Shown here: positions 5,093 through 48,762 of the stretch, piece by piece
Layout: each line of letters starts with the position of its first letter
How positions within the stretch are numbered: the first letter of the stretch is position 1
Assembly (NCBI GenBank): GCA_965601925.1
Contig: OZ271854.1
Coordinates: forward strand, 4,704,001 to 4,768,000
From: Alkalispirochaeta sp.
Lineage (GTDB): Bacteria > Spirochaetota > Spirochaetia > DSM-27196 > Alkalispirochaetaceae
Reading direction: 5' to 3'
DNA: 64,000 nucleotides
Notes under the pieces: generated by a model
Told to the model about the DNA's origin: nothing
Databases searched by the model: none
What the model saw: the letters and a program-made list of their open reading frames with translations, nothing else
Made by a program: the position numbers and the translations under genes

Positions 5093-5113
5093 TCTTTCCT
5101 CCGTAGATTACTA

Positions 5114-5130: not shown

Positions 5131-5168
5131 CTTTCCACATCGGATTTCGTCGGCATTATGTGTATATA

Positions 5169-5181: not shown

Positions 5182-5226
5182 CACATACCGCTCGACAAGA
5201 GGGATAAGAACCGTTCCGAACAAATT

Positions 5227-5290
5227 CGCGTCAAAACGACCCACTTCTGTGTTTTCGTCCGAAAACAGGGTGAAAATGCCCCATTTTCAC
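5227..5290. promoter_or_regulatory. Candidate upstream activator sequences for a sigma54 enhancer-binding protein
   Basis: Related 17-mers CGCGTCAAAACGACCCA (5227-5243) and AGGGTGAAAATGCCCCA (5267-5283), plus palindromes TGTTTTCG-tc-CGAAAACA and GTGAAAATG-ccc-CATTTTCAC. Confidence 0.45.
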
Positions 5291-5318
5291 TTTATGAGCC
5301 CTCCCGGCGTAGTTTTTC

Positions 5319-5347
5319 TTGACCGGTTGGAGCGAGGTCGTTATATT
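5319..5347 (+). promoter_or_regulatory. Sigma70 promoter for groES
   Basis: TTGACC-N17-TATATT. Confidence 0.65.
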
Positions 5348-5406
5348 TCCTGCGGAATATTTCTCCACAGCTAATCAAACTTTGTAACGTCTAATAGGAG
5401 GACAGC

Positions 5407-5670
5407 ATGACTGTTAAACCGCTGGGTGATCGAATTCTGGTCAAAATAGATGAGGGAGAGGAAAAGACCAGGGGAGGTCTTTATATTCCTGAGACCGCCC
5501 AGGAAAAGACGCAAATCGGCACCGTCGTCGCGATCGGAAGCGACGAAGAAATCACCGTCAAGGCTGGCGATCGGGTGATGTTCGACAAGTACGCCGGTAC
5601 CACCGTCAAGATCGACGACAAGGATCACTTGATCCTCAGCATGGGCGACGTTCTCGCGACGGTAGCATAG
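5407..5670 (+). CDS. groES: Co-chaperonin GroES (no adjacent groEL)
   Basis: [47 protein letters not shown]. Confidence 0.97.
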
Positions 5671-5715
5671 GCGGTCTCAGTAGGCGCGAGTACCGCGTCA
5701 TTTTGACCCACACAT

Positions 5716-5749
5716 GGACGGGCATCCTATCGGGCGCCCGTCCTTTTTT
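5716..5749 (+). terminator. Terminator after groES
   Basis: GGACGGGC...GCCCGTCC followed by T6. Confidence 0.8.
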
Positions 5750-13578: not shown

Positions 13579-14750
13579 GACGTCGGTGAGTCCTCCCACC
13601 CGATGAGATGCTTCTCCCGTTGCGGAAGCGGCAGGGTGATGGTGAAGGTCGTACCGTGCCCCTCTTTGGAAATCACCGAAATATCGCCCATATGTTCCTT
13701 AATCACCTTGTAAACCAACGTCAGACCGATGCCGCTTCCGAAATCCTTGGTCGTGAAATAGGGCTCGAAAATCTTGTCCCGTACATCGTCGCTCATTCCG
13801 ATCCCGTTGTCGCTGATACGTAACAGCGCCTGGTCTCCCCGCACCTGGGTGCTCACACGGAGCATACCCCCCTCCGGCATGGCCGAGATCGCATTCTTGA
13901 CGAGATTCATAAGCGCCTGTTTGAGATATTTAGGATCGATTCTGAGGCGCGGGAGCCGCTCGTCCAAGTCTTTGACGAGTTCAATCTCGGCCTGTTCCAA
14001 CTCGTACTGCACGAAATTGAGTAAATCCTCGACGAGCACATTGAGGTGTCCGTCTTCCAAATGGGTATTCATGGGCCGCACGGCAAAGAGAAAATCGACG
14101 ACGATTTTGTTAAGCCGGTCGATCTCCTCATCGATTACCGATAAATAGCTCCGTATCGGCGAGGCGTGCTCCTCGTCGATGCGCGCGACCACCTTCTCGA
14201 TCAGCTGCGTGTGGATACCGATCGATCCGAGGGGATTTTTGATCTCGTGCGCTACACCCGCCGCCAACGTCGTGAGGCTCGCGAGGCTTTCCGCTCGCCG
14301 GAGGCGCGCCTCGCGTCCGCGCTTCTCGGAGATATCTACGATTTGCAAGATGCTCCCCCTGATATGACCGGCTTGAACCAGTGGGATGATACTGCACGAG
14401 AGGATACGGGTAGTTCCGCCGCTATCCAAAGCAAACTCGCGATCCGAGACGGACTCGTCGTTCTCCAATGTGTCGTGCACGAAGGCGGCGATATCCTCGT
14501 CGGCGATGACGCGCCATATCGGCCGGTCGCCTATAATGCGGCCCGGTACCAACGGAATGAGTCGTTCCGCCGCCTTGTTGACCAGCATCAATCGGTGAGA
14601 TTCATCGACGACGATGACGCCGTCGTTCATCGAATCGAGTACGACCGCGATGCGTTCGTTTTCCTCCGCAACGGTCGCCAGCAGCTGTTCGACCTGCTTA
14701 CTGTCGAGTTTCGGCAGCTTCGCAAGGGCCCGACGTACAAAGCCCCTCAC
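13575..14750 (-). CDS. Soluble PAS-domain histidine kinase (Hk2-like)
   Basis: PAS-like region, AHEIKNPL H-box, NLVKNA, DNGIGM, PYFTTK..GSGIGL. Confidence 0.93.
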   Translation of the reverse strand: MRGFVRRALAKLPKLDSKQVEQLLATVAEENERIAVVLDSMNDGVIVVDESHRLMLVNKAAERLIPLVPGRIIGDRPIWRVIADEDIAAFVHDTLENDESVSDREFALDSGGTTRILSCSIIPLVQAGHIRGSILQIVDISEKRGREARLRRAESLASLTTLAAGVAHEIKNPLGSIGIHTQLIEKVVARIDEEHASPIRSYLSVIDEEIDRLNKIVVDFLFAVRPMNTHLEDGHLNVLVEDLLNFVQYELEQAEIELVKDLDERLPRLRIDPKYLKQALMNLVKNAISAMPEGGMLRVSTQVRGDQALLRISDNGIGMSDDVRDKIFEPYFTTKDFGSGIGLTLVYKVIKEHMGDISVISKEGHGTTFTITLPLPQREKHLIGWEDSPTS

Positions 14751-15973
14751 CGACTACCTCCGCCGATCGCGGTTTCCGCCGTCCGTTTCATCGACAGTAC
14801 GAGGGACGCCAACACGGATTGAGGATTCATATTGCGCACGGCGATGCGGTCCCAATGAACTTGGATAAGCCGACTCCACGCCGTATATCGACGACGCCCC
14901 TCCTCATCGAGGGCCGGAAGCTCGCCGCGCAGCTCTTCCGACAGAGCATCGAGGTAGTACTCCGCTCCGGCACGGGGCTGGACGGAGGCCATCTGAGAAC
15001 GAAGCCCCGACTCGATGTCCGATATTGAGCCGTCGCCGTACACAACGCGCAGCGTCCGCTGAGCAAGGTCGCGCCACGACCGCTCCGCTGCGCCGCGGCG
15101 ACGAAAAAAGTCCTGTAGCCGCGAATGCTCCGGCTCCTCTACGCGGAAAATCCGCCGCTGTACATCTTCCTGCGTCGAGACTGGGCGCTCCGGAAGTGTA
15201 TAGACTCGCAAACGCGAGAGAAGTGTCGGAATAACGGCCGAACGCCGAGAAGAGGTAAGAATGAAGTAGACGTCCGTCGGGGGCTCCTCGAGCAGTTTGA
15301 GCATTGCGTTCCGCGATCCTTCCTGCAGAGTGTGTGCCTCCTCGAGGATGAGGACCTTTTTCCCCGCCGCGGCCGATAGGTGTGCCCACGAACCGACGGC
15401 ACGAACCAGATCGACCGGTACCGGATCGTGAGGAAGGTTTCGGCGCAAACGGTCGGTGCTGCGCGATATCTCCTCGGCGAAGATGCTCAGCGCCTTGCCC
15501 TCCAGATGTTCCCACGGCGCGTCGGATATCTCCGACGGCTCGACACGCGCGAGCACCTCCTCGATACCGTCGACGACCGGACGCGCCTTGGAGAGTCGCG
15601 CCTCGGGCCACAGGAACGGGTCGAAGCGCCGAATCAGCTTACGAACGGCGCGCACCAGAAGAAATGCGGTACCGGAGCGCCGTTCTCTCCGAAACGCGTC
15701 GAGAGCGGCGTCGATCTCAAGGTCGAAGTACCGCTCCCCGGCAAGCACCGTATCGTGATGTTGGAGGGTGCGTTGTAATCGACACGACTTACACGTGCAG
15801 TTCCAACGGCCCGTCTCACGACATGTGAGGCCGCGAGCAACCTCGAAAGCGACTGAGGACTTTCCGCCGTACTTCGCACCGGCGATGAGAATCGCCTGGG
15901 GCAACCGACCGGATCGTATGTCGTGTTCGAGATCGCGCGTAACGTGGTCGTGACCGAGAATGTTTTCAAACAT
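14747..15973 (-). CDS. DNA polymerase III delta-prime-like AAA+ protein
   Basis: MFENILGH, degenerate Walker A, C..WNCTCKSC zinc motif, NAMLKLLEEPP, TLLSR. Confidence 0.8.
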   Translation of the reverse strand: MFENILGHDHVTRDLEHDIRSGRLPQAILIAGAKYGGKSSVAFEVARGLTCRETGRWNCTCKSCRLQRTLQHHDTVLAGERYFDLEIDAALDAFRRERRSGTAFLLVRAVRKLIRRFDPFLWPEARLSKARPVVDGIEEVLARVEPSEISDAPWEHLEGKALSIFAEEISRSTDRLRRNLPHDPVPVDLVRAVGSWAHLSAAAGKKVLILEEAHTLQEGSRNAMLKLLEEPPTDVYFILTSSRRSAVIPTLLSRLRVYTLPERPVSTQEDVQRRIFRVEEPEHSRLQDFFRRRGAAERSWRDLAQRTLRVVYGDGSISDIESGLRSQMASVQPRAGAEYYLDALSEELRGELPALDEEGRRRYTAWSRLIQVHWDRIAVRNMNPQSVLASLVLSMKRTAETAIGGGSR

Positions 15974-33836: not shown

Positions 33837-36800
33837 TTACACCGCACGAGGCACGATATCGTAGCGCATCGTGAGGTCCATCAAACTATCGAAGGGGCGG
33901 GAAAAACCCACCATGAGATAGCGTCGTGCTCCGGTGTCCCTGAGCGGCAACAACAGCCAGCTATTGACCGATACCAGCTTGCTCGCGTGGCAAGTATCGG
34001 CGAAATCGCGAAAAAACGACAGGGGTCGCTTGAGAAGGGCGACACGGCGAAAGGCGACGACATTCCGTACGAGGTCGCAATCGGGCTCGAAAGAGAGACT
34101 CGAATCACACTCTTCGCTCAACCCGATCCCGAAACTACCCTGCATACGCCCGTCCGCCAACTCATCGAGTACAAGGGCTACCCTCGCGTTCCAACGGCGC
34201 GTTATCTGCACCAACTCGCGATACACTTGACGAACTCCAACGTTACCCGAATCGACTCGTATCGGAAACTCGAACCCACCGGACACGATGCGAAGGGCGG
34301 TGTCTTGATGGTCGGCGGAGGATTGTTCCGATTCGGCGTCGTCAAAAATGTCGTCAAAATCGAGATCATCGAACGCCGTTTTGAGTACATCGTCAATGCT
34401 CGACAGGTCGTGGTGCAGGAGAATCTGTTCGGCCAGCAGCTGCACGCGCTGATCGATGTCGCGGTACTCCGCAAAGTACGCCGCCGCCCGGATCTGTATG
34501 AGTCCGTCCCGCTCCTCGAACACGCTGTGCCGACGACCGGCTGAAGCAAAGAAATCCTCAATCTCCATGATATGGTGCGTTTCGGTGTTCTCGATTCCGC
34601 GCACGACGATCTCGTCGGGGAGCGTTTCCTTCCGTATCGGTACTGTCGGCGCCGGACCGTCGGTGGAAGACGGCAGGGAGTCGCGAATGCTCGATGCGCC
34701 TCCGAATGAGGAAAAGGCGCTGACAAAGGACGGAGCACCCTCACCCACCTCTTCTATGGGTAGCGCCTCGGCGGAATCGAACTGCACTTCGTCGAGCTCT
34801 TCGATGAGCTCCTCCGACGCAACGGTGCCCCGGACCGGTGAGAGGTCCTCGACGTCGACGGGTTCCAGTTCCTCCACCGGTTCGAGCGCTCCCGATCCCG
34901 GTTCATCCGACTCCGCTATCTCCTCAAGTGCTTCGAGTTCTTCCGGATCATCGACGTCGACGATCTTCGGCAATCCGAACGTAGCCTCGTCCGGGTCGAC
35001 CATGGAGGCGTCGTCGGTTTGCGCGGCCTCCTCGAGCGGCGACGACGGAGCAAAATCGAGCGCGGCACGGTCTCCGGCCGGCTCAGGGATGAGCCTTTCA
35101 TCCTCGGACAGCTCCGGAGGTGTCGTGGAGACGGGCAACCAGTCTTGGGTGCGCGAAGCGGTCGCTCCCTCGGCACCGTCCGGAGATAGGTCGGCGTCCG
35201 AGCGCACGGTGTCGGGCTCATCTCGTACGGCATATCCGGCAAGCCAATCGGCCTCGGGCACGAGCGGCCCTATCTCCTCTTCGACGACGATTTCACCGAG
35301 AAACGGTTCTTCATCGATGCCTTCGACAATACCGATCGCAAGCGTTCCACCGGAGCCGTCTTCGCCGTACTCGGTTTCTTGCGGCTCGTCGACGGGGCCG
35401 GCCTCGTATGCCTCGTCGTCGGACTCGGCATCCGCGATCTCCGCCGATACGTCGTCGACGGCGACCGCCTCGTCCAGTTCGCCGTCGACGACCTCTTCGA
35501 GTTCGTCGATCGGCTCGGCTTCGACCATCTCCTCCACCACATCGAAAAACCTCGTGGGCGCTATATCCCCGGGCGCATCGGCGAGCTCCGCGGCAAGCTC
35601 CAGGTCTGCCGTCCCTTCAAACTCGTCAAGGCCTCCGGTTTCATCAGGCCGGCCGACCTGAACTTCATCGTGAACCCGACCCTCATCGGTCTCTATGAAC
35701 TCTTCCAGTTCGTCGACGGGCTCCGCATCCTCGATCCCCTCAAGCTCGTCGATCGGTTCGGCGTCAGGTATCTCTTCCGGATCATCGACCGGCTCGACAT
35801 CCCCGACCTCTTCCAGTTCGTCGACGGGCTCCGCGTCCTCGATCTCCTCAAGCTCGTCGATCGGTTCGGCGTCAGGCATCTCTTCCGGTCCGTCGACCGG
35901 CTTGCCGTCCCCGACCTCTTCCGACTCGTCGACGGGCTCCGCGTCCTCGATCTCCTCAAGCTCGTCGATCGGTTCGGCGTCAGGCATCTCTTCCGGATCA
36001 TCGACCGGCTCGACATCCCCGACCTCTTCCGACTCGTCGACGGGCTCCGCGTCCTCGATCTCCTCAAGCTCGTCGATCGGTTCCGCGTCAGGCATCTCTT
36101 CCGGATCATCGACCGGCTCGACATCCCCGACCTCTTCCAGTTCGTCGACGGGCTCCGCATCCTTGATCTCCTCAAGCTCGTCGATCGGTTCGGCGTCAGG
36201 TATCTCTTCCGGATCATCGACCGGCTCGACATCCCCGACCTCTTCCAGTTCGTCGACGGGCTCCGCGTCCTCGATCTCTTCCAACTCGTCGGATCGATGT
36301 CGTCTCGCCGGTTGCGACGCGACGTCCGACTCAGGATGCGTCGTTGAGGAAGCCGAGAGCCTCCCGTAGCGCGACAACGTGCGCTCGATAATCGCCTCGA
36401 TTTGCTTGAGGCTGACCGGTTCGAGCTCAGCCCGTTGCGCGTCGCCGCGGGTGCCGAAGAGGTGATAGAGCTCGTCCCAATTGCGACTCATCTCTTGTTC
36501 GAGTCGCCGGCGAGACTCCTCGTTCACGCGTCCCAAGCCGCGTTGCAACTCGTTATCGATGCGTTCGCGTCGTCCGTCAAGCTCCTTCTTCCACAACTCC
36601 GGCTCGACGGCACGTCCTTCGCGCAGATAATCGCGGACCACGGCCTGTTGAAATCGACGGAACCGCTCGGCGACGATGATCGTCGGGTCCTGACGAATAT
36701 TGAGAATTAAGTAGCTCACCAAGAAGGTCGCCACGAATACCGCGGCGAGAAGAATGACACGCAGGCCGTTGTCCATATGGAGTTCGGCCTCCCGTATGAG

Positions 36801-37619
36801 CATGACACCGACCGGAACGAACTCGCTCTCCTCCCGCACTTCGACGGCGAAGGTTGCACCGATCGCACTCTCGAGGATGGGTACCGAATCGCCGCGAGCG
36901 ACCGCCGTGTCGATGTGCGACAGATCCTCCCGGTTGAAGTGGCGCGGCGCGTTGAACACCAACACGCCGCCAGGTGTTAGGCGAACGCGTTGCGAAGGGC
37001 CGATGATTCCCTGATCAACGAGGCGCGAGAAGAGGCCGCTACTACCGGCCCACGCAACGAGGACACCCCGCGGTATGGAGAAGCCGTCGACTATGGGCGC
37101 CGTTACCCGCACCCCCCCGCGCTCCGGAATCCACTCCACCCCGCGCTCTTCTTCCGGCGTTTGCGGGAGAAACAACGGCGGGTCGAGGGCCTCAACCGGT
37201 TGGTACTCGATGCTGACGTCACTACGCGACCGAATGTCCGCATCGAGTGAGCTGAACCACAACCGTCCCCGTTCATTGTCGATGATTCGTATATAGTCGA
37301 TTTCCGGGCGCGACTCCGATAACCGACCCATCAACCGAGCGCGTTCTTCCGTGTCGGTACGGCTCTGATTGATGAGAAACACGGCGCCGACGGACCGCTC
37401 GGCGGCCAGCGAGCCGATGTCGCGAAGGAGGGCGCGCGAATACTGCGCAGTGACGCCCGCGGCCTCTTCCATGAGGGCGCGCGTCGTCGATCGTACCCGT
37501 TGATTGTAAAACCGCGTATCGATGAGGTCAAAAAGCCCCGAATAGGCGGCCACGGCGAAGCCGGTGAACACAGCCGTGGCGAGAAGGAAGCTTAACAGGA
37601 CCTTTTGAAATACTTTCAT
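33837..37619 (-). CDS. Large membrane protein: two TM segments flanking an extracytoplasmic domain, then a long acidic repeat region and a C-terminal globular domain
   Basis: 1260 aa ORF; hydrophobic segments at about residues 7-30 and 285-305; D/E-rich central region. Confidence 0.8.
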   Translation of the reverse strand: MKVFQKVLLSFLLATAVFTGFAVAAYSGLFDLIDTRFYNQRVRSTTRALMEEAAGVTAQYSRALLRDIGSLAAERSVGAVFLINQSRTDTEERARLMGRLSESRPEIDYIRIIDNERGRLWFSSLDADIRSRSDVSIEYQPVEALDPPLFLPQTPEEERGVEWIPERGGVRVTAPIVDGFSIPRGVLVAWAGSSGLFSRLVDQGIIGPSQRVRLTPGGVLVFNAPRHFNREDLSHIDTAVARGDSVPILESAIGATFAVEVREESEFVPVGVMLIREAELHMDNGLRVILLAAVFVATFLVSYLILNIRQDPTIIVAERFRRFQQAVVRDYLREGRAVEPELWKKELDGRRERIDNELQRGLGRVNEESRRRLEQEMSRNWDELYHLFGTRGDAQRAELEPVSLKQIEAIIERTLSRYGRLSASSTTHPESDVASQPARRHRSDELEEIEDAEPVDELEEVGDVEPVDDPEEIPDAEPIDELEEIKDAEPVDELEEVGDVEPVDDPEEMPDAEPIDELEEIEDAEPVDESEEVGDVEPVDDPEEMPDAEPIDELEEIEDAEPVDESEEVGDGKPVDGPEEMPDAEPIDELEEIEDAEPVDELEEVGDVEPVDDPEEIPDAEPIDELEGIEDAEPVDELEEFIETDEGRVHDEVQVGRPDETGGLDEFEGTADLELAAELADAPGDIAPTRFFDVVEEMVEAEPIDELEEVVDGELDEAVAVDDVSAEIADAESDDEAYEAGPVDEPQETEYGEDGSGGTLAIGIVEGIDEEPFLGEIVVEEEIGPLVPEADWLAGYAVRDEPDTVRSDADLSPDGAEGATASRTQDWLPVSTTPPELSEDERLIPEPAGDRAALDFAPSSPLEEAAQTDDASMVDPDEATFGLPKIVDVDDPEELEALEEIAESDEPGSGALEPVEELEPVDVEDLSPVRGTVASEELIEELDEVQFDSAEALPIEEVGEGAPSFVSAFSSFGGASSIRDSLPSSTDGPAPTVPIRKETLPDEIVVRGIENTETHHIMEIEDFFASAGRRHSVFEERDGLIQIRAAAYFAEYRDIDQRVQLLAEQILLHHDLSSIDDVLKTAFDDLDFDDIFDDAESEQSSADHQDTALRIVSGGFEFPIRVDSGNVGVRQVYRELVQITRRWNARVALVLDELADGRMQGSFGIGLSEECDSSLSFEPDCDLVRNVVAFRRVALLKRPLSFFRDFADTCHASKLVSVNSWLLLPLRDTGARRYLMVGFSRPFDSLMDLTMRYDIVPRAV
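35706..36281 (-). repeat. Intragenic tandem repeat: 16 x 36 bp with a 108-bp higher-order period
   Basis: Units EEIEDAEPVDEL / EEVGDVEPVDDP / EE(I/M)PDAEPIDEL repeated five times plus one unit (576 bp). Confidence 0.95.
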
Positions 37620-39065: not shown

Positions 39066-41438
39066 CTACCGGTAGTCCGGGAGCGCGATGCGTTGTCCCG
39101 GAACGATGATGGCAAACTGCTCCAGCTGAGGATTGGCCTCGAACACGTCCAGGATGTATTGAAGCCACGTTACGTCCGGCGAAACCGAGTACGGAGTACC
39201 ATCCGCGGTAGCAATGGAAGCGTCCGAGGCGCGGCGGAACAGGTCCCACGCGGTCTGTCCCGCCGCGACGGTCCACACGAACCCGTCCTGGCCGCCCTCG
39301 ATACGATAGATCGCGACCGCGCCCTCCTCGCCTCGTCGACCCTCCCGTCGATCCGAGGCCGACGGGCTCTGCGCGTTGCGCCGAGGCTCGGTGTCGGAAC
39401 GCGACGCCGCGGAAGGCTCGCCCGTCTCGATGAGAGTATCGCCGTCGCCGGATCGACGAGTGATCACCTCCCCGTGGTCGCGCCGGTTGCCGCGGACTAT
39501 GAGCACCAGCACGGATAGAAGCGCGACTCCCACCGCGACGATTGCGCGAAACGGCACCCGTCTCCCGCGCGAAGGTCGCCGCCCGCCGCCGGCCTCCCGA
39601 TCGCGAGGTCCCGTCGCGGCGTCACTCGCCGGCGCGAGGGGCGTTTGTTCGACGGCGTCGCGTGGTTTCACGTCCGTTTTGCTCGTTGTCGCGTTAGCTC
39701 GGCTCGCGTCGGCCGCGTCGAGAGCTGAAGCGGTTTCCGGCTCCGACACGCCCGTACGCGACGGTCCATTCTCCACTTCATGGGACTCTCCGCTCTCGAC
39801 GCCTTCGACGACGAGTTCCACCGGCGATGCGTCGCCGACGGATGAGGAGGGCTGCGCGGGTTCTGCGTCGGTGGGGCCGACTGCAGTCCCGCCGGTATCG
39901 TCCGCGGCGCGACCGTGCTCCTTCGGCGATGCCGGAGTCGACTCGCGGCGTTCTTCTCTCCCGGGCCGCCCCTCGCCGGATGCCTCGGGTGCCGGCGTTC
40001 GCATGTCGGGCGATACGGCCCGGTCTTTGCGTTCCGTGCGGCCCGCCTTGCTCGTTCGACCGGCACTCGCCGGACTGGGAGCGGCCGCGTCGCTCTCCCC
40101 CGCGCGGCCGGCTGCAGGCGGCCCGATCGTCTCGTCGGCGGGTGCGTCGGTATGGGTCGCCGTCTCCTCTCCGTCGACGTCGGCGCCGTCTATCCCTTCG
40201 ATGATCCGCAAGAGTTCACTCAAGTTACGATTAAAGTGGATGGTGTAGTCAGAGGTCGCCTCCTCTCCGGACGCGCCCCGGGCCTTGTACCCCGCCGCAC
40301 CGCGGCCCGACTCCGCGGAAGCCTCGATGTTCCCCGCGACCGTGCCGAGCCGTTCTCCCAAGTCACTCCGACTCTCATCGGCCGACGCCTCGGACCGCAG
40401 TCGGTCCGCATCGCCTTCTCGCGCGCCCACGGGATCCGACAGACGCGTGCCGGCGACGATGTCGGCTTCCGTTACAGGGAACGGATGTGCCGGTTGCGGC
40501 GCCCGGGAAGACGAGTCGATCGGCGCGCCGTCCCCGCGCCGATCGCGATCGCTCGTACCGTCGACGGCGAAACGGCGAGGTCGGTCGGCCTCGGCTCCGC
40601 TTTCCGGGTAAAGGGCGGCCGGGCCTCGCCGGTGCGGCGCTCCCTCGGGCGTCCCGGACGAGGGAGCTCTTTCGGTGTCGGGCGTTTGCTCGTCATCGGC
40701 CGTATCGGGGCTGCGGATCGAGCGCTCGATGGACCGTTCGGCACCGTCGGGCGAAACGGTATCGCCGATCGTCGGCTCCTCGGCGTAGTTAAACTCGCCG
40801 GACAGTGCGGCGTCGCCTTTGCGTTCCAGCTCTGCGATAATCGCCTTCAGACTGCGAAGATACGCAAGCGTGCCGGCGACGACGTTGTCCGGTAGGCGCG
40901 CATCGATACGGTACATCAAGAAGCTCAGCATCGCACGATTCTGTTCGTGTAAATCGACGCGACACATGATCATCGTGAGATATAGCGCAACCTCGGCGGG
41001 AGTGAAGGTCGATTGCACGGTCCGGATCTTCATTCCATGGCTAATCGCCCGCCGAAAGGACAGATACGCGCGACTCCCGATATCGTAGGTCACATCGGAG
41101 GGGAGCGGATGACGACTACGAAAGAGGTGCGCGCGAAGAACGTTCTCGTCGGCGAGGTCCAACCGTCCGCGCAATCGCGCAAAGAGCCGTTCGGTCGTAA
41201 CGAAGTTGCTCTCACCCAACTTCGCCGTCAACAGGAGCGCCAGGACGAGGTGTTCTTTGGGTCCCGACGGATCGGCGTACTCCTCTTCTACAATCGCACG
41301 AACGCGCGCGCGGTCCCGCCCGTCGTGGAGCGCGAGAAATGCAGCGATGCGTTCATCGAGCTGCGTACACCACTTGTGAATGTGCGCGAATGCAAAGAGT
41401 GCCTGCAGCTCGTCTCGAATTTCGTCGTCACGCGCCAT
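39066..41438 (-). CDS. Hypothetical single-pass membrane protein: helical N-domain, long low-complexity linker, TM, LysM-like C-terminus
   Basis: TM AIVAVGVALLSVLVLIV; C-terminal WTVAAGQTAWDL...ANPQL....IVPGQRIALP. Confidence 0.7.
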   Translation of the reverse strand: MARDDEIRDELQALFAFAHIHKWCTQLDERIAAFLALHDGRDRARVRAIVEEEYADPSGPKEHLVLALLLTAKLGESNFVTTERLFARLRGRLDLADENVLRAHLFRSRHPLPSDVTYDIGSRAYLSFRRAISHGMKIRTVQSTFTPAEVALYLTMIMCRVDLHEQNRAMLSFLMYRIDARLPDNVVAGTLAYLRSLKAIIAELERKGDAALSGEFNYAEEPTIGDTVSPDGAERSIERSIRSPDTADDEQTPDTERAPSSGTPEGAPHRRGPAALYPESGAEADRPRRFAVDGTSDRDRRGDGAPIDSSSRAPQPAHPFPVTEADIVAGTRLSDPVGAREGDADRLRSEASADESRSDLGERLGTVAGNIEASAESGRGAAGYKARGASGEEATSDYTIHFNRNLSELLRIIEGIDGADVDGEETATHTDAPADETIGPPAAGRAGESDAAAPSPASAGRTSKAGRTERKDRAVSPDMRTPAPEASGEGRPGREERRESTPASPKEHGRAADDTGGTAVGPTDAEPAQPSSSVGDASPVELVVEGVESGESHEVENGPSRTGVSEPETASALDAADASRANATTSKTDVKPRDAVEQTPLAPASDAATGPRDREAGGGRRPSRGRRVPFRAIVAVGVALLSVLVLIVRGNRRDHGEVITRRSGDGDTLIETGEPSAASRSDTEPRRNAQSPSASDRREGRRGEEGAVAIYRIEGGQDGFVWTVAAGQTAWDLFRRASDASIATADGTPYSVSPDVTWLQYILDVFEANPQLEQFAIIVPGQRIALPDYR

Positions 41439-41632
41439 TCCGCGAACTCTTTCACCTCCTCCCTACAGCATAAGCCAGCGGCAAAAACTCTTCCCCTTCG
41501 ATACCGATCTCGGTGATCAGCGTAGAAAGCGTTGCCGATACGCCCAAAGAGGACCATTCGGTTCGAATTTGCAATTTCGTCGTGCATGACCGAAGGTCTT
41601 ACATGGGAAGAAGTGATTCGAGGAATCCTGAT

Positions 41633-42376
41633 ATGACCGACGTGTATCCCGAATCTGAGTTTGATGCGATCGTTCGAGAGCATCGCCATATCATTCTCGA
41701 CGGCGTCTTCGGTACCGCCACTCCTATCCAAGTCGGATCGAGTATGGCGTTCGCCAGGTACTTGAGTCACGTCGGTATAACGCCGAAGAACTATCTGCTG
41801 TTCTTGAGAGTGATCGAAACCAACAACAAATGGGTCGTCGATGAACTCGTCGGAACGCGCGACCCGCGTCTCTTCTTCTCGACGATCCGTCCTAACCCCG
41901 GGCTCGTCCGTCGGGCGTTCGAGCTGTTGTCCGCCTGGCATCCCGGCCAAATCTACTCGAAGGTGCTGCTCACCGTGTTGGGAATCATCGAATACTCGTA
42001 TCACAAACCGGACGACGGATTTCGGATATATCCGATAGGGATCACCGATTTGCATAACCTGGGTAAATTTCTGGACGCAACATTGGACCAGATGGATCCG
42101 ACCAACGCCACGGTCCTCGAGATTCTCGATCGCATTACGCGGCTGGGCGAGTACGATGGGGGAACGGAAAAGATCACCATCTCCAAACACGCCTTCAACA
42201 TTCGCGATTCATTTTTCGACAACACGAAGACCTTGATGGACACGATCCCCAAAATACTACTGGTACGCCTTAACAGGGAGGAGCATGAGGTCGCTCCCTC
42301 CCGAGAATACATCGACCTCGCGGCAAAGATTGAGGCACATATCGAAACTACATCATCGGAAGGACGAAAGGCATGA
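41633..42376 (+). CDS. Unknown-family protein, paralogue A of four
   Basis: SD GAGGA before ATG; aligns by eye along its length with the ORFs at 46404, 47171 and 47980. Confidence 0.85.
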   Translation: MTDVYPESEFDAIVREHRHIILDGVFGTATPIQVGSSMAFARYLSHVGITPKNYLLFLRVIETNNKWVVDELVGTRDPRLFFSTIRPNPGLVRRAFELLSAWHPGQIYSKVLLTVLGIIEYSYHKPDDGFRIYPIGITDLHNLGKFLDATLDQMDPTNATVLEILDRITRLGEYDGGTEKITISKHAFNIRDSFFDNTKTLMDTIPKILLVRLNREEHEVAPSREYIDLAAKIEAHIETTSSEGRKA

Positions 42377-43275
42377 GTATGACGGTGTCGGACATCAAAA
42401 AAGTCATATCGATTGTCGAGACCAACGCCAACAGGCCCACAAGCAGTACGGGCATTCCGGGCGGGCTTTTGGACTACTCCGCGGACGAGCGGCCGGTCAT
42501 CGTTATCGGCGATCTCCACGGGGCGATCGACAATTTAAAGGCGATTATCGAGCACAACGACAATCGCACCAAGCTGGAGCGCGGCGATATACTCGTCGTT
42601 ATTCTCGGCGACGGCATCCACAACGATCAGACGGGCCAAATGCTGGAGATGGACTCGTCGCTGGAGGTCCTGGAGGAGGTCTTTCGCCTGATTTTGACGT
42701 ACGGCGAAAACGTCATCTACATCCGGGGCAACCACGACACGTTCGACGAGAACATCGCCAAGAGCGCCGTCAAACAGGGGCTCGAGTTTCGAAACTACCT
42801 GGCGGTTCATCGCGACGAGAAGTACATCGCGGCGGTCGACGAGTTCTTCGAGGCGCTGCCGATGTTTATCATCGGTAACGGCTACGTGATCACTCATGCG
42901 GGTCCGGTTCGTCACGGGTGTACCCGCCGGGAGCTCATCGACGTTAAAGACAATCCGGATTACTACCGCCAACTCATGTGGAACCGCCTGCACGAGTTTC
43001 GTGGGACACCGAGCCTTAAGGAGTACGGAGAACAAGACATCCAACGGATGCTGGAAAAACTGAACCTACCGACCGATACCCCGTTCATCGTCGGACACAA
43101 CCCCATGTGGCGATCGGGCAATGAGACGGGAATTTGGCGGGACATCATCGGGATTAAGAATCACATCATTCTCTATTCGAATCTGCAGACGCGCGGGCCG
43201 TATCTTGTGGTGGAGGGCGGACAGATTCACGAGTTCTATGCCGTGCCGGACACGCCGGAGAGGTTTTATGTCTGA
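42373..43275 (+). CDS. Calcineurin-like (PPP-type) metallophosphoesterase
   Basis: GDLHG, LGDGIH, RGNHD, THAG, LMWNR, VGH; ATGA-coupled to paralogue A. Confidence 0.88.
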   Translation: MSMTVSDIKKVISIVETNANRPTSSTGIPGGLLDYSADERPVIVIGDLHGAIDNLKAIIEHNDNRTKLERGDILVVILGDGIHNDQTGQMLEMDSSLEVLEEVFRLILTYGENVIYIRGNHDTFDENIAKSAVKQGLEFRNYLAVHRDEKYIAAVDEFFEALPMFIIGNGYVITHAGPVRHGCTRRELIDVKDNPDYYRQLMWNRLHEFRGTPSLKEYGEQDIQRMLEKLNLPTDTPFIVGHNPMWRSGNETGIWRDIIGIKNHIILYSNLQTRGPYLVVEGGQIHEFYAVPDTPERFYV

Positions 43276-44197
43276 AAAAAACAGTAACATGCTGATTGCC
43301 GATACCATTCACGATGAAGCGGTGCGACGCTATCTCTATCTCGATCTGTCCATTGACCAACTGATTACCAAGCTGAGCAGCGTAGAGCTGTCGGATATCG
43401 GGGACGAGCAACTCACCCCCTTCTTTGCCAAGGTGCGGGGCTACACGGGCGCACACGACGGCGACGGTGATCCGTGGCTCGTAAAGGAGATACCCGCCTC
43501 CGAGGGTCCGAGCCACAAGATCCAGGAGATCGCCTATTACGTGGATTTCCTGCTGAAAACGCCGGCGGCGCCGACCGTTCTCCTACGCCAGGACGGGAAG
43601 GTGTACCGGGCGACGAAGCTCATCACCAGCGCAATGCAGATCGGCAGCTACAACTACTTGGAGCAGCCGTTCATAAAGATGCTGGCCAACGACCTCCTGA
43701 ACCGCTGGCTCTTTTTCGACGAGGATCGCAACCCCAACAACTATCTGGTGAAACACGACACCGATGGAGAGCCGTACATCGTCGTCATCGATTATAACAA
43801 GGCCGACCTCGAGCACCCGGACATGAAGATCACCGGTACCGACGACCATTTCGGGTGGTATCGTGAAGAGAAGACGCGCTTTTTGACGCTCCTGAAACCC
43901 GAAAACTTTCAGGTGCTGAACATCGACGACTTTGAGGAGCGTCTCACACTCATGAAAGGACTCGAGGAGTCTACGCTGTTCGGAGTGTGCAAGAAGGTCT
44001 TCTCGGGCGACATATTCGACGATCCGGACGGTGTAGCGCACACCATTGCGTCGAATCTCGTCGGCCGCATCGCGTATCTCGACGGCTACTTTCGCACATG
44101 GTTCAAGGAACGAAACATATCCAAGGAAGAAGAGGTGGACGATCGCTACTCGGGACTCGGTCAATCGTTTCTTAACTACTACAAACGAAAGACGTAA
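43268..44197 (+). CDS. HipA/PI3-PI4-kinase-like atypical kinase
   Basis: WLVKE (ATP Lys), QEIAY (alphaC Glu), DEDRNPNNYL catalytic loop, VIDY Mg-binding loop; overlaps the phosphatase stop. Confidence 0.75.
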   Translation: MSEKNSNMLIADTIHDEAVRRYLYLDLSIDQLITKLSSVELSDIGDEQLTPFFAKVRGYTGAHDGDGDPWLVKEIPASEGPSHKIQEIAYYVDFLLKTPAAPTVLLRQDGKVYRATKLITSAMQIGSYNYLEQPFIKMLANDLLNRWLFFDEDRNPNNYLVKHDTDGEPYIVVIDYNKADLEHPDMKITGTDDHFGWYREEKTRFLTLLKPENFQVLNIDDFEERLTLMKGLEESTLFGVCKKVFSGDIFDDPDGVAHTIASNLVGRIAYLDGYFRTWFKERNISKEEEVDDRYSGLGQSFLNYYKRKT

Positions 44198-44217
44198 ATC
44201 GTGGGGACGGTGCCGGT

Positions 44218-46338
44218 ATGCCGCAATCGGGAGAGACCATAAACGGTTGCTATACGTTACAAGAAAAGGTGGGAGAAGATCGCTTCTTCTCCACGTGGCG
44301 CGCAACGGCTCTCTACTCGCCCAATAGCTTCTCTCTCACCTTTCTGACGTTTCCATACAAGAGTGTCCCGAAACGCGCATTCGATGAGTTCCGCCGTCTC
44401 TTTCTTTCGCTCTACACACTTCAGAACCCGTACGTTCTCACGCCGTTTGAGTATGACGAGTCGGGGGAGACGAAGTATCTCGCGTCGCACTGGATTAATG
44501 GTTATTCGCTTCGCGAGGCGATCGACAACGGTGACTTCTCCGAGAAGGACCAAGTTATCAACACCGCGATTCACATCCTCCGCGGTCTTGCAGAACTGGA
44601 GCGAATCGGTGTTCGACACGACGTACTCACGCCAAAATCACTGTTATTGAGCAGCTTGAACTCCGACTACGACGTTCCCAGAATACGCAACATCGGCTTC
44701 TCTCTGTTCATCGACGCGTTGGGAGCCGCTGCGGAGTACCGCGATCTGCCGCGCTATCGCACCGAATCACTGAGGGAGGAGACGCACGAGCGAGATCTCT
44801 ATGCGGCCGGGGCGATCATCACCGAACTCGTGTCGGCCGTAGACACCGCCGATCTCTCGACCTTGGCCGACATCGGTCGCGCATTCTGCGCCGACACGGC
44901 CTCGTTTACCTCGGTCAACGACGCATTGGCGTACTTCCTAACGCAATACCCTGAAAAGCGAACCGTCGACTTGATTCAAGAGCACGTCGCGGATGTCCAG
45001 ATCGACGACACGATGAGCCGGGACCTCTACCGCAGTATCGAAGCGCGCTACCTGGCGACCAAGGAGTCCGCGGAGGAAGGGAGCTTCCGCGCCGCTTTTG
45101 CGGAGTCGCCTCCTCCGCGGCGCTCGGCTCGTGGGAGGGCTGCCGGGAGTGCTCCATCGGGTGACGCCGCCTACGAAGAGCCACCTGAGGACGCACGCGC
45201 CGAAGATGACGACGAGATTGCCGAACTCCTTCCCGTCGATCCCGACGGTGTCGAGGAGGCTCCCAAGGGATTTCTGGCGCGAGCGGTCTCGGCGGTACGC
45301 CGTCTCTTTGCGCGCCGCTCCAACAAACACGCCGCGCCTCAGGACGAGACGGCGAGCGAAGCGCCCGTCGCCGATACCGGACCCCCGGGCGGCGGCGACT
45401 CAGGTGAAGCGTCGCCGACGCCGAACGACGCCGCGCTCGAAGGTTTCCGCAAGGGTGCGCCGTCGGACCCCGCGCCGGTGTTGTCGCATCCCGAGTCCCA
45501 CGAACCCCAAGAGGTCGATACCTCGCGCATATTCGAGATATTCCGACAACTCAAGGAGCACTTCATACGTACGATTCGTCCCGAGGAACACCGCCTCCGA
45601 CTCGACCACGGCGGATCGCGGCCGCAAAAACGATCGCCGTGGCACGGTGCCCTCAGGGCACGTTCGGGATCTGCGGAAGAGGCCCTCGATACATCGGCCG
45701 AGCGGCAAGCCGCTCCCAAATCGAAAAAAACCCGGTCTCGCACCGCCGCCGGCGAAGCGGGTCCCTCGGTGGATACCGGAGAGCATGAGAATGCCGCTCC
45801 GTGGAGCGTTACGCGGGACACCGAAGGAGAGGGAAAGGATTACGACTTCAAGCCGGGCCCGGACTACGCGCCGGGTGAGCGTCGCGGTTTGGATGATGAG
45901 ATCGGAGAGCCGGGGGATATCGACTTCGGTTCGAGCGCGCTACGGACCGATCGCGAGGCGCCGACCGACTCCGAGGGAGACGATGAGGCGTTACACGACG
46001 ACATCCGTCGAGGGCAAACCGCAACGCGACACGACGCGCTCGACGACGACGCGGCCGCACCGGATCAGGCTACAGCGAGCGCGACTCCGGTCGATAGTGC
46101 CGCCGCCGAGCGGCCCGACGCCGACCGTGTAGGGCCGGACACCGATGGTGGAGACGGTTCCCGCCGCAAGAGACGGCGCCGCGCCGCCGAGGCCGCCCCG
46201 ACTCAAGGGAGTCATGGAATGCAAAACGGTGGCCGGGAGGCGTCGGAACGTCGCCCTAAATGGTTTTGGCGTCTTGTTGCACGAGCGCAATCGATCGTGC
46301 GCCGCCTCGGAGATACGATCTTCCGACGGGAACAGTGA
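44218..46338 (+). CDS. Hanks-type Ser/Thr pseudokinase with long disordered C-terminal tail
   Basis: GETINGCYTLQEKVG, QNPYV, G.SLRE, ILRGLA, RHDVLTPKSLLL, IRNIG; catalytic K, HRD and DFG are all substituted. Confidence 0.72.
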   Translation: MPQSGETINGCYTLQEKVGEDRFFSTWRATALYSPNSFSLTFLTFPYKSVPKRAFDEFRRLFLSLYTLQNPYVLTPFEYDESGETKYLASHWINGYSLREAIDNGDFSEKDQVINTAIHILRGLAELERIGVRHDVLTPKSLLLSSLNSDYDVPRIRNIGFSLFIDALGAAAEYRDLPRYRTESLREETHERDLYAAGAIITELVSAVDTADLSTLADIGRAFCADTASFTSVNDALAYFLTQYPEKRTVDLIQEHVADVQIDDTMSRDLYRSIEARYLATKESAEEGSFRAAFAESPPPRRSARGRAAGSAPSGDAAYEEPPEDARAEDDDEIAELLPVDPDGVEEAPKGFLARAVSAVRRLFARRSNKHAAPQDETASEAPVADTGPPGGGDSGEASPTPNDAALEGFRKGAPSDPAPVLSHPESHEPQEVDTSRIFEIFRQLKEHFIRTIRPEEHRLRLDHGGSRPQKRSPWHGALRARSGSAEEALDTSAERQAAPKSKKTRSRTAAGEAGPSVDTGEHENAAPWSVTRDTEGEGKDYDFKPGPDYAPGERRGLDDEIGEPGDIDFGSSALRTDREAPTDSEGDDEALHDDIRRGQTATRHDALDDDAAAPDQATASATPVDSAAAERPDADRVGPDTDGGDGSRRKRRRRAAEAAPTQGSHGMQNGGREASERRPKWFWRLVARAQSIVRRLGDTIFRREQ

Positions 46339-46342
46339 TACC

Positions 46343-46377
46343 AAAAAAAATCGTCCCGCATGGGATATGCGGAACGA
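46343..46377 (-). terminator. Terminator of the three-paralogue operon, between convergent units
   Basis: - strand TCGTTCCGCAT-atccc-ATGCGGGACGA followed by T8. Confidence 0.82.
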
Positions 46378-46403
46378 CATCGATTTCATCGTTACGATTG
46401 CGG

Positions 46404-47090
46404 TCAGGCCGTCGCAGGGGCAATCTCCAGCTTCGTATAATCCTCGATTTGCAGCAGGAGATCGGGAATCGCCTCGTTAAGGGATTTGTTCATATCCAAA
46501 AACTTTCCGCGAATGTTGTTGGCCTGAATGGCAACCGCCATCACCTCTTCCTCTTCGTCAGGGCGACCGGGATCTACAAGAGCAGCAACTTTATCCAATA
46601 TATCTAAAATACTGGCGTTGAGTGGGAATCGCTGATCCTGTTTCTCATCCAGGTGTTTGCCCATATTGTTGATATCGGTCGTCGTCAACGGATAGACGCG
46701 ATATCCCTCGACCGAGTTCTCATAGGTGACTTTGAGAATACCCAGATAGGCCAACAAACTCTTTGGATAGATTCCCCCCCGATAGGCTTGGTCCAGCGCC
46801 CGGAAACACTCCTTGAGAATGAAGTAGTTCGGCTGCACGGCGTTGAAGTACGTCTCCGGTTGCGCGTCACCGAGCAGCGCATCGGTCACCCAGTGGTTTC
46901 GCAAGCTGATAAGCTTCAGGAAGATCGGATAGTTGTCGGGATTGACGCCGACCTTTTGCAGGTAACCGGCGTATGCGATCGCCGCACCGACACCTATGGG
47001 ATCATCCACTCGAAGAATGCTGGTGAGGAAGGACAGCTCGAGCTTATCGAGATCTTCCTGGCCCCAACCGTTTTCTTCCCATCGTTTCAC
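46404..47090 (-). CDS. Unknown-family protein, paralogue D
   Basis: AAGGAGG SD then GTG 47090; shared motifs NYPIFL, NHWV.D, GGIYPK, DINNMGKHL, ILDILD. Confidence 0.85.
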   Translation of the reverse strand: MKRWEENGWGQEDLDKLELSFLTSILRVDDPIGVGAAIAYAGYLQKVGVNPDNYPIFLKLISLRNHWVTDALLGDAQPETYFNAVQPNYFILKECFRALDQAYRGGIYPKSLLAYLGILKVTYENSVEGYRVYPLTTTDINNMGKHLDEKQDQRFPLNASILDILDKVAALVDPGRPDEEEEVMAVAIQANNIRGKFLDMNKSLNEAIPDLLLQIEDYTKLEIAPATA

Positions 47091-47112
47091 TGACACCCTC
47101 CTTTGTTGAGAT

Positions 47113-47143
47113 CCGATGGGAGGAGAGCACGCCCTCCCATCGG
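47113..47143. other. Perfect 11-bp intergenic hairpin inside the paralogue operon
   Basis: CCGATGGGAGG-N9-CCTCCCATCGG with no U-tract. Confidence 0.7.
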
Positions 47144-47170
47144 CATTCATGCGGAACGGTCACGCAACGA

Positions 47171-47953
47171 CTACGTCTCTCCGTTCTTGGGCGCCTCTTT
47201 TGCGGCCGCCTTGGCGGCGGGCTTGGCCTGCTTGGGGGTCGACGCGGGCTTCTCAACTTCGGCGAGGGGCTTTCGATTCCTGGGATCCATCTCGGGATCC
47301 AGTTTTACCTCGGTCCGCAGGAGAACGGTCGGAATAACCTGGCGCAGACTCTTGGTGGAGTCGAAGAAGTTGTTCCGAATGTTATGGGCGTGGACCGCCA
47401 GGTCCTCCATCTCCTCGTCCCTGTTCTGGCCCTCCAGCTCGGAGAGCTTGTCGAGGATATCCAGGATACTGCGGTTGAGGAGGTCGTCCTGTCCCTTTTC
47501 CTCGATCAGGTGCTTTCCGAGACTGTTCACATCGGCGATCGTCGGCGCGTAGATGTTGTACCCGTCGAGAGGATTGTTGTACGTCGCCTGAAAAACACCC
47601 AGAATAATTCCCAAAGTCTTCGAGTAGATCTCAGCGGGATGGTATTTCGCCAGAAAGCTAAAGCACGTAGCGACAATAAAATAGTTCGGCTGGATCGAGC
47701 TCATGAACAGGAAGGGGTCGCGCGTTCCCAAGAGAGAATCGATCACGTGATGGTTGCGCACGCCAAGCACCTTCAGAAAGACCGGGTAATTACTGCTCGT
47801 GATCCCGATGCTATTGAGGTAGTTGGCGTACATCATCGCCGCCTCGACGGCCTCCTGTGTTCGTACACCCATCAGCCCCTGAAGCAGACTGTATTCGATG
47901 CTCGCGATCTCCGATTGCGACCATGTTTCTCGTTTCTCAAACAGTTCTTTCAT
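47171..47953 (-). CDS. Unknown-family protein, paralogue C, with K/A/P-rich tail
   Basis: Shared family motifs; start is ATG 47953 or GTG 47971. Confidence 0.85.
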   Translation of the reverse strand: MKELFEKRETWSQSEIASIEYSLLQGLMGVRTQEAVEAAMMYANYLNSIGITSSNYPVFLKVLGVRNHHVIDSLLGTRDPFLFMSSIQPNYFIVATCFSFLAKYHPAEIYSKTLGIILGVFQATYNNPLDGYNIYAPTIADVNSLGKHLIEEKGQDDLLNRSILDILDKLSELEGQNRDEEMEDLAVHAHNIRNNFFDSTKSLRQVIPTVLLRTEVKLDPEMDPRNRKPLAEVEKPASTPKQAKPAAKAAAKEAPKNGET

Positions 47954-47979
47954 CGTGACGTATCCTTTCACTCAATCCT

Positions 47980-48675
47980 TTAGGCAAAGAGCATATCGGG
48001 GGCTACTTCTTTGGCGATGTAGTCCGACTTGACCAACAAGACCTGCGGAATGATCTCTTCCATCTTCTTTCGCTTGTCGAAGAAGAACGTCCGAATGCTA
48101 TTTGCCTGGCGAGCCATCTGCTCGATTTCGGGATTCTCCGTCGTACCGGCCAGCGATCCGAGACGATCCAGAATGTCGAGAATAACGCGATTATTCGGAT
48201 CGTCCTGCCCCAACTCCTTGTTCAAGTGCTTGCCCAGATTATTGACATCGTTAATGCTCACGGCATAAATTCTATAACCGTCTTTCGGCGAGCTGAACGC
48301 AGCCTGCAGCACACCCAGGATGATGGCGAGGGTCTTCGGGTAGATTCCGCCCGGGTGCCAATTCGTGAGTAGCTTGTACGCACTCAGAATGAGATAGTTG
48401 TTCGGATGGATCGAGCTCAAGAGCAGGAACGGGTCCTTTTCGCCGATAAGCGAGTCGATAACCCAGTGGTTTTCCACCTCGAGTAACCGAAGAAAGAGCG
48501 GGTAATTGAAGGCGGTCAACCCTGACATACGGAGAAATCTCGCGTAGCTGATGGATGCTCCTACGGCCTCGACCGTGCGACACCCTATCATGCGCTCGAT
48601 AATGTTGATTTCTACGTCCATTATCGATTCACGAGTCCAAGCGTCCTCGATCACTTTTTCCTGTTGTTCGTCCAT
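47980..48675 (-). CDS. Unknown-family protein, paralogue B
   Basis: Strong SD AAGGAGGA; shared family motifs. Confidence 0.87.
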   Translation of the reverse strand: MDEQQEKVIEDAWTRESIMDVEINIIERMIGCRTVEAVGASISYARFLRMSGLTAFNYPLFLRLLEVENHWVIDSLIGEKDPFLLLSSIHPNNYLILSAYKLLTNWHPGGIYPKTLAIILGVLQAAFSSPKDGYRIYAVSINDVNNLGKHLNKELGQDDPNNRVILDILDRLGSLAGTTENPEIEQMARQANSIRTFFFDKRKKMEEIIPQVLLVKSDYIAKEVAPDMLFA

Positions 48676-48733
48676 TCATTCCTCCTTGTGGTATACATTT
48701 GACCGAACAAAGAAACTCAACCTCACGAAAAAA

Positions 48734-48762
48734 AGTCTCGAAGGCGCGATACCGTTTGTCAA
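48734..48762 (-). promoter_or_regulatory. Sigma70 promoter for the paralogue B-C-D operon
   Basis: - strand TTGACA-N17-GAGACT, about 60 nt upstream of the start. Confidence 0.6.

Follow-up and report, generated by a model that had tools for sequence, protein, structure and literature searches.

A conserved module of four helical paralogues, a predicted kinase, a metallophosphatase and a pseudokinase in spirochaetes

We analysed a 64,000-nucleotide stretch of DNA from Alkalispirochaeta sp. (GenBank assembly GCA_965601925.1, contig OZ271854.1, positions 4,704,001 to 4,768,000 of the forward strand), referred to here as the window. Positions 39066-48762 of the window carry eight long open reading frames (ORFs), which encode four paralogous proteins (A, B, C and D), a predicted kinase (K), a metallophosphatase, a pseudokinase (PK) and a membrane protein. 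This locus is a real, conserved and undescribed module. In the following we present its genes, its distribution and the properties of its proteins, and we consider the tentative reading that the four paralogues build a scaffold under the control of K and the phosphatase.

The positions of the genes and of the transcription signals are collected in Table 1. As a preliminary description of the locus had proposed, a plus-strand operon opened by A converges on a minus-strand operon composed of D, C and B, and all eight ORFs of that layout were recovered. The longest ORF for K begins at 43121. The start of A is probably ATG 41603 or ATG 41633, because homologues of A align only from residue 37-41; purine-rich stretches are present upstream of both ATGs. 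The same description had attributed to D-C-B a terminator and a promoter of its own. The former was confirmed, since a strong hairpin of 12 pairs, with a T-run behind it, lies directly after B on the minus strand (46378-46350). The latter is only partly supported: the candidate includes a perfect TTGACA at 48762-48757, but its -10 element GAGACT is weak (3/6) and a sigma-70 consensus scan did not call it.

Table 1. Genes and transcription signals of the module, in positions of the window.
Feature	Position	Strand	Remark
Membrane protein, 790 residues	39066..41438	-	ORF; divergent from A
Paralogue A	41513..42376	+	ORF; opens plus operon
Metallophosphatase	42373..43275	+	ORF; 4-base overlap with A
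Kinase K, 309 residues	43268..44197	+	internal ATG start; 8-base overlap with phosphatase
Pseudokinase PK, 706 residues	44218..46338	+	ORF
Hairpin terminator	46350..46378	.	between convergent operons; T-run on minus strand
Paralogue B	46404..47150	-	ORF; closes minus operon
Paralogue C	47171..47971	-	ORF; middle of D-C-B operon
Paralogue D	47980..48675	-	ORF; opens minus operon
Possible promoter of D-C-B	48734..48762	-	TTGACA, 17-nt spacer, GAGACT; read from sequence

The genes of the module were found together in other genomes, as would be expected of the self-contained system supposed in the preliminary description. Relatives were scanned using one genome per species, and the best 80 of 135 relatives fell into 67 loci. 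Every locus carries a label of the Spirochaet-, Treponema- or Rectinemataceae-type or just 'bacterium'. The commonest order among these 67 loci is A-phosphatase-K-D-C-B-PK on one strand. The arrangement of the window, where the membrane protein gene is divergent from A, PK follows K and D-C-B is inverted, occurs in about a dozen of them. Gene content was compared in the 24 well-flanked loci, which include K and 5 kb or more on each side. All 24 carry the phosphatase, and none has fewer than four paralogue places (21 loci have four and 3 have five). PK, detected using the window protein, was found in 20/24, and the membrane protein in 8/24.

The distribution across the phylum was assessed in 401 evenly drawn genomes representing 153 genera. 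The paralogue family was detected in 16/401 genomes and 14/153 genera. K was detected in 12/401 genomes; all 12 belong to the 16 paralogue-positive genomes and none to the 385 paralogue-negative ones. The four paralogue-positive genomes without K are 83-94% complete. In the 40 nearest relatives of the window genome, including 16 congeners (78-97% complete), the paralogue family was not found. These congeners are diverse, with flanking orthologues 42-73% identical. Their inositol monophosphatase and glycosyltransferase genes, which flank the module in the window, are located on different contigs or were not found, so that no clean empty insertion site could be defined. The module is thus patchy yet strongly conserved where present and, over the sequences searched, it is restricted to Spirochaetota and to some spirochaetes only.

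Patchiness of this kind, extending to the congeners, would suit a system for anti-phage defence or another conflict, with the kinase as the sensor of infection and the paralogues as effectors or decoys. The base composition points in the same direction, with a GC content of 52-56% for the core genes, below the 59-66% of the flanks (segments encoding disordered regions reach 62-70%), as does a weak similarity of PK to the defence kinases MkoA (1.9e-10), PD-T4-6 (1.2e-7) and MAD6 (1.1e-7). However, the MAD6 match scores 30.8 bits against a cutoff of 460, and the PK matches in PADLOC-DB 2.0 are generic kinase-domain matches, while the seven other proteins have no match there at E <= 0.1. No nuclease, protease, NADase or pore-forming domain was detected by Pfam and NCBIfam scans of the eight proteins, and no relatives of K or D were found in viral contigs or in plasmids. 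We also judge the conservation of D and C and the stable orthologue groups described below to be unlike fast-evolving defence genes. Finally, the module is embedded in ordinary housekeeping genes: UvrB, HtrA, a ComM-like ATPase and inositol monophosphatase on one flank; UPF0047, a glycosyltransferase, cytidylate kinase, YicC and a Mur ligase on the other. No integrase, transposase or other mobile-element gene lies nearby, in agreement with the preliminary description. We consider a defence function very improbable.

The relationship of A, B, C and D, proposed earlier from the ORF translations, is clear. B, C and D share 34-38% identity with A, 49 columns are invariant in an alignment of the four, and a genome search with D retrieved the three other copies at E values of 5e-49 to 2e-65. 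The 5.05-Mb single-contig genome contains no further copy. None of the four has a meaningful match in Pfam, NCBIfam, PADLOC or PHROGs, and their profile gave chance matches only against PDB sequences. Among 1.84 billion representative proteins, this profile recovered 212 clusters (50% identity), whose members are all named 'hypothetical protein' and, where a taxon is given, are labelled as spirochaetes.

A first tree, of 227 sequences, separates the four window paralogues into four clades that correspond to gene position. The A clade has one sequence from each of 42 loci, and in 36 cases the gene lies directly upstream of the phosphatase gene. After K, the first place is usually occupied by a member of the D clade (68 sequences, 63 loci), the second by a member of the C clade (62 sequences, 57 loci) and the third by a member of the B clade (50 sequences, 44 loci). 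When 129 rows were analysed by maximum likelihood in a second tree, monophyly was recovered for A, C and D, with Shimodaira-Hasegawa-like approximate likelihood ratio test (SH-aLRT) supports of 93, 60 and 94, respectively, but not for B. Mean column identity is 67% for D and for C, 58% for B and 48% for A, and D and C are thus the two most conserved paralogues. Their orthologues are 56-95% identical to window D and 48-86% identical to window C, which places both among the most conserved proteins that can be expected across a phylum. As far as sequences can tell, the four paralogues are ancient, non-redundant and separate orthologue groups.

A fifth, shorter paralogue of about 190 residues was noticed beyond the membrane-protein gene in the nearest relatives of the window (L009:7014-7514, L014:7320-7820 and L017:7472-8023). 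It forms a clade of its own (P0086-P0129). The window genome does not carry it and has the inositol monophosphatase gene at that side instead. In L035, L047, L056 and L067 the D-C-B triplet is present twice, with copies about 8.1-8.2 kb apart and 99.2-100% identical in DNA (in L067, at 4787-6985 and 12940-15138). Between the two copies lie PK, some 2.5 kb of other sequence, A, the phosphatase and K. These four cases come from separate assemblies, three of which are whole-chromosome records, and the duplication was also seen in genome G356 of the 401-genome sample. Long antisense ORFs cover the paralogue genes in the window (41288-42190, minus strand) and in many other loci; they cluster across loci solely because the sense genes are conserved.

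Structure prediction was carried out on D. The model, based on 67 homologues, has a predicted local distance difference test score (pLDDT) of 95.4 and is all-helical, with 12 helices. A search of the ESM Atlas with D gave a best score of 0.82, and no family was consistently matched. With an exhaustive structural aligner, the top match of the model was the DID of mDia1 (Z 8.5, root-mean-square deviation (rmsd) 3.4, 136 aligned residues), followed at Z 7-8 by armadillo (ARM) and HEAT proteins including p120 catenin, CNOT9 and AP adaptors; for helical repeats, a Z below about 13 in this aligner may mean merely a common arrangement. 'Armadillo-like alpha-solenoid' is therefore used here as a description of the D model and not as a family assignment.

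K had previously been called HipA-like. It has no family match in Pfam, NCBIfam, PADLOC or PHROGs. Even at E <= 1, Pfam gave only a chance match to MuF_C and nothing for PI3_PI4_kinase, HipA or Pkinase, and the K profile retrieved chance matches and no kinase among PDB sequences. The family counts 530 clusters (90% identity), all unnamed and all without Pfam domains. The K model (pLDDT 87.8) adopts a protein-kinase-like fold. Its top Foldseek matches are the type II phosphatidylinositol 4-kinases (PI4KII) alpha and beta (3.7e-5), and these also head the structural alignments (Z 15.3-14.7, rmsd about 4.0, 227-232 aligned residues, PI4KIIbeta best). Next come Helicobacter pylori CtkA (Z 14.8-14.2), Golgi casein kinase/Fam20 (Z 13.7-13.0), actin-fragmin kinase (Z 11.1), HipA (Z 10.8) and the class I/III PI3-kinases (Z about 8.5). 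Down to HipA, these matches are 10-15% identical to K in sequence. HipA is thus a lower-scoring structural match than PI4KII and CtkA, and neither Pfam nor NCBIfam gave a HipA family match. On the evidence of the model, K is a member of the PI4KII/CtkA/Fam20/actin-fragmin-kinase structural group. In one study of PI4KIIalpha, its closest structural analogues are given as CtkA, Golgi casein kinase and actin-fragmin kinase, and the insertions I1-I3 are described as unique to that enzyme (PMC3974213).

Two motifs, FDEDRNPNNY and I-D-[YF], do not vary among 40 homologues of K, and the residues K73 and E79 are conserved in 90% or more of them. In the model, the conserved residues lie in a beta strand, in the next helix, in the loop after the long helix and at a strand end. 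We read these sites as the putative ATP lysine, its glutamate partner, the catalytic loop and the metal-binding aspartate. Since the conserved motifs occur at the expected places, K is predicted to be active.

The phosphatase matches Pfam Metallophos (PF00149, E 1.6e-15), and its best specific match is a phage family, the NinI-like Ser/Thr phosphatases of PHROG (3.2e-11). The NCBIfam matches are all far below their cutoffs, weak matches to nucleotide and DNA phosphoesterases among them. Five metal and phosphate motifs, GDxHG, GD..H.D, GNHD, H.GP and GHNP, are retained by 97% or more of 36 homologues. The canonical second motif of PPP phosphatases is GDxxDRG. In the window protein this motif reads GDGIHND, with G, D, H and D conserved and DRG absent. 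The assignment to the PPP phosphatases made at first therefore holds for the Metallophos fold with its GDxHG and GNHD motifs but not for the second motif, and the protein is better described as a lambda/NinI-like metallophosphatase, predicted to be active.

The structural matches of K also admit another function for the enzyme pair. K could be a PI4KII-type lipid or small-molecule kinase and the metallophosphatase an opposing phosphoesterase. Both would then act on some component of the membrane or envelope, and the helical-repeat proteins would serve as carriers or adaptors. This would be consistent with the Z scores and the Foldseek result given above, with the Metallophos superfamily including non-protein phosphoesterases, with the weak phosphoesterase matches in NCBIfam, with the membrane-linked components of the module and with the inositol monophosphatase gene adjacent to it in the window. 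However, the protein kinases CtkA, Golgi casein kinase and actin-fragmin kinase (best Z 14.8, 13.7 and 11.1) are close in Z, and they are the very enzymes named as analogues of PI4KIIalpha in PMC3974213. Moreover, K has no hydrophobic segment (maximum Kyte-Doolittle hydropathy (KD) 1.14), the phosphatase resembles most a Ser/Thr phosphatase, and the inositol monophosphatase neighbour is not conserved, its side being taken by the fifth paralogue in L009, L014 and L017. A lipid or small-molecule substrate appears distinctly improbable to us.

The first 270 or so residues of PK form a Hanks-type domain that is degenerate. Its match to Pfam Pkinase (19.9 bits against a cutoff of 31.7, E 5e-4) is below the gathering threshold. 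The kinase relationship is clear at the fold level, with 109 kinase matches in PDB at E <= 1. In the window protein the beta3 Lys is replaced by T, the HRD Asp by V, the catalytic Asn by S and DFG by NIG. In 36 homologues the beta3 position is mostly R, DFG is mostly KPG and the HRD Asp is not conserved; only the L050 and L060 proteins keep both K (beta3) and D (DFG). As all four catalytic residues are replaced, in the window protein as well as in most homologues, PK is a pseudokinase, as first proposed. The domain is followed, after about residue 280, by a disordered linker of about 390 residues, 84% of them disorder-promoting. In the window-type clade the C-terminus is a conserved basic amphipathic helix (hydrophobic moment 0.72, charge +5); proteins of the commoner arrangement carry a small conserved domain of another kind there. 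Three basic amphipathic segments of the window protein, at residues about 350-370, 437-454 and 680-700, lie within the disordered region or at its end and have hydrophobic moments up to 0.77; these could be membrane-binding or peptide-docking motifs. In 11 loci of the common arrangement, a gene for a GGDEF diguanylate cyclase of about 250 residues (cluster c6) lies just downstream of PK on the opposite strand (L025:15296-16042, minus strand, and 10 others), which may be chance synteny or a link to cyclic di-GMP signalling.

The membrane protein had been read as a transmembrane LysM protein. It consists of a helical N-domain of about 215 residues, conserved in 13 homologues and predicted to be cytoplasmic, a low-complexity linker of about 400 residues, one transmembrane helix at residues about 630-650 (best hydrophobic window at residue 630, KD 2.73) and a conserved C-terminal domain of about 90 residues. 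The other module proteins do not exceed KD 1.32, so that this helix is the single transmembrane segment of the whole module. The N-domain is unrelated to the paralogues (hhalign probability 0.2%). The transmembrane helix and the divergent transcription from A are thus confirmed, but Pfam LysM (PF01476) was matched at E <= 1 by 0/13 proteins (the window protein and 12 homologues). The C-terminus showed a partial match to TIGR02899 (SafA-type, E 0.019), and language-model features linked it to LysM clusters (0.86), a result that counts as no more than a lead. The C-terminal domain may about equally well be a LysM domain or not. Likewise, the place of the protein in the system had to be revised, as it is confined to the window-type subclade and does not belong to the core, being present in the 8/24 well-flanked loci mentioned above.

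Twelve loci have only a D-like and a C-like gene. Ten of them, from a Treponemataceae/Rectinemataceae lineage, are closely related (D-like proteins 87-100% identical). In these ten, the pair lies in a same-strand operon-like run, with an RsbW-like HATPase_c_2 kinase gene directly upstream. Downstream come two genes for STAS proteins and one for a hydrolase, and the neighbourhood also encodes a SpoIIE phosphatase and a ParA-like ATPase. L071 (81% identical) retains the HATPase_c_2 kinase upstream and the ParA-like gene. Uncharacterised neighbours of the pair loci (c7, c21, c10, c9, c19 and c6) were compared with K, the phosphatase, PK, the N-domain and the paralogues, with hhalign probabilities of at most 1.1%. 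The presence of a second, non-homologous Ser/Thr phospho-module beside D and C fits a link between this pair and phosphorylation. We give it modest weight because the context comes essentially from one lineage. In L041, a ParD/ParE-like toxin-antitoxin pair was observed directly downstream of the stand-alone D/C genes (8731-9359).

The stand-alone pairs bear on a further explanation, namely that the paralogues are regulatory or targeting subunits which steer K and the phosphatase to other cellular substrates and are not targets themselves. The overlap of A with the phosphatase gene and of the phosphatase gene with K would be expected in this case, as would the joint occurrence of a kinase, a pseudokinase and ARM-like proteins. 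Subunits of this kind would resemble those of PP2A. A further parallel is LKB1, which, according to PMC2686265, is activated by MO25 together with the pseudokinase STRAD. In addition, the alignment of A, B, C and D contains no invariant Ser or Thr, so the paralogues may not be the substrates. On the other hand, the 12 loci with D and C only have neither K nor the phosphatase nearby, and the flanks of L041 are without any kinase. The four paralogue-positive genomes in which K was not found argue in the same sense, although these are incomplete. Targeting subunits for other substrates are, in our view, a somewhat unlikely explanation.

We therefore return to the reading in which the four ARM-like paralogues form a cytoplasmic scaffold whose state is set by K and the metallophosphatase through phosphate. 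This is the interpretation we tentatively put forward, giving it slightly less than an even chance. In the cytoplasm, the four paralogues would come together as non-redundant ARM-like subunits. A, the phosphatase and K, made in a fixed ratio from overlapping genes, would act on or through the D, C and B proteins. Phosphate would be added by K and removed by the phosphatase, either on the assembly itself or on PK, which with its long disordered region may serve as an adaptor or as a phosphorylation substrate. In the window subclade, the C-terminal amphipathic helix of PK would hold the assembly at the inner membrane and the membrane protein with its LysM-like end would link it to the cell wall. 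From the assembly step onward, this mechanism is what we infer from the gene content and the predicted proteins.

The observations in support of a scaffold are the strict co-occurrence of K with the paralogues, the four orthologue groups, the folds, the intact motifs of K and the phosphatase and the degenerate state of PK. They also include the overlaps between A and the phosphatase (4-base) and between the phosphatase and K (8-base), the single transmembrane helix, the PK tail and the partner-switching context of D and C. Several results weigh against it. Foldseek retrieved nothing for the D model at E <= 1e-3 (best E 0.06), and the ARM-like call peaks at Z 8.5, which may reflect just a common helical-repeat arrangement. 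No Ser or Thr is invariant across the four paralogues, which may therefore not be the substrates. The best structural matches of K are lipid kinases, so that its substrate may be non-protein. A distribution limited to 16/401 genomes of the phylum and 0/40 relatives is unusual for core cell machinery. The LysM domain that would anchor the assembly was not recognised by Pfam. The partner-switching neighbourhood comes from what is essentially one lineage, and L041 (67% identical), outside the ten related loci, has neither the HATPase_c_2 kinase nor the ParA-like gene.

Elsewhere in the window, a 1260-residue ORF (33837-37619, minus strand) lies about 1.4 kb upstream of the left end of the module, with the inositol monophosphatase gene in between. 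It matches no Pfam family at E <= 1e-3. A search of the locus with Rfam gave a single sub-threshold match, to CRISPR-DR25 within gene C (28.1 bits against 36), which we take as chance. For expression, no RNA data set was listed with the locus; the four runs that contain it belong to one study and are not recorded as RNA.

Four ancient paralogues with a private kinase, phosphatase and pseudokinase suggest an undescribed machine in a phylum with an unusual cell architecture. The paralogues, K and the N-domain of the membrane protein represent three families without a Pfam, NCBIfam or PDB sequence relative, and K would extend the PI4KII/CtkA/Fam20 kinase group by a compact bacterial branch. If the phospho-regulated scaffold is real, it would be a new type of bacterial intracellular organisation and a prokaryotic example of pseudokinase/ARM-repeat regulation. 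A more extended picture can be drawn, in which free-living spirochaetes contain a scaffold or condensate of four ARM-like proteins and the disordered PK adaptor, tethered to the membrane and anchored to the wall in some lineages, whose state is written and erased by K and the metallophosphatase. It is unlikely to hold as a whole. Were it true, it would be a bacterial counterpart of the logic of eukaryotic kinase-pseudokinase-ARM complexes and PP2A-type holoenzymes, and possibly a new cytoskeletal or polarity system. Its eight genes have clear orthologues, and its enzymes include predicted active and dead ones, which makes the module well suited to testing.

The preliminary description had matched the locus to no named system, and this remains the case after searches in Pfam, NCBIfam, PADLOC, phage and plasmid data and in the literature, where no description of the module was found (supplements not covered). 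Individual components can nevertheless be compared with known ones. PD-T4-6, Mokosh MkoA and MADS MAD6 share with PK a weak kinase-domain similarity, but PK is without catalytic residues and no other component of these systems is present. Partner-switching proteins (RsbW/SpoIIAB, STAS, PP2C/SpoIIE) flank the D/C pair in the two-paralogue loci, whereas none of these genes occurs in the window. With the lambda phosphatase/NinI-like and ApaH-like enzymes, the module phosphatase has in common the Metallophos fold, GDxHG and GNHD; it differs from them in carrying GDGIHND for GDxxDRG as second motif. K is predicted to share its fold with PI4KII, CtkA, Fam20/Golgi casein kinase, actin-fragmin kinase and, at the lowest Z of these, HipA, from all of which K is set apart by its 10-15% identity, its length of 309 residues and the lack of a Pfam or PDB sequence match.

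At the level of whole assemblies, HEAT/ARM subunits steer the phosphatase in PP2A. Like PP2A and LKB1-STRAD-MO25, the module brings together a kinase or a PPP-type phosphatase with a pseudokinase and ARM/HEAT scaffold subunits. This is an analogy only, with no sequence relationship and a weak ARM-like call (Z 8.5) on the side of the module. PknB/PstP and PrkC/PrpC are bacterial operons of a Ser/Thr kinase and a phosphatase. As in these operons, a kinase and an opposing phosphatase are encoded together in the module, which implies reversible phosphorylation. In contrast to them, K is not of the Hanks type, as judged by the absence of a Pkinase match and by its PI4KII/CtkA-like fold, and the phosphatase is a metallophosphatase and not a PP2C. 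To such a pair the module adds four ARM-like paralogues (24/24 well-flanked loci) and a pseudokinase (20/24).

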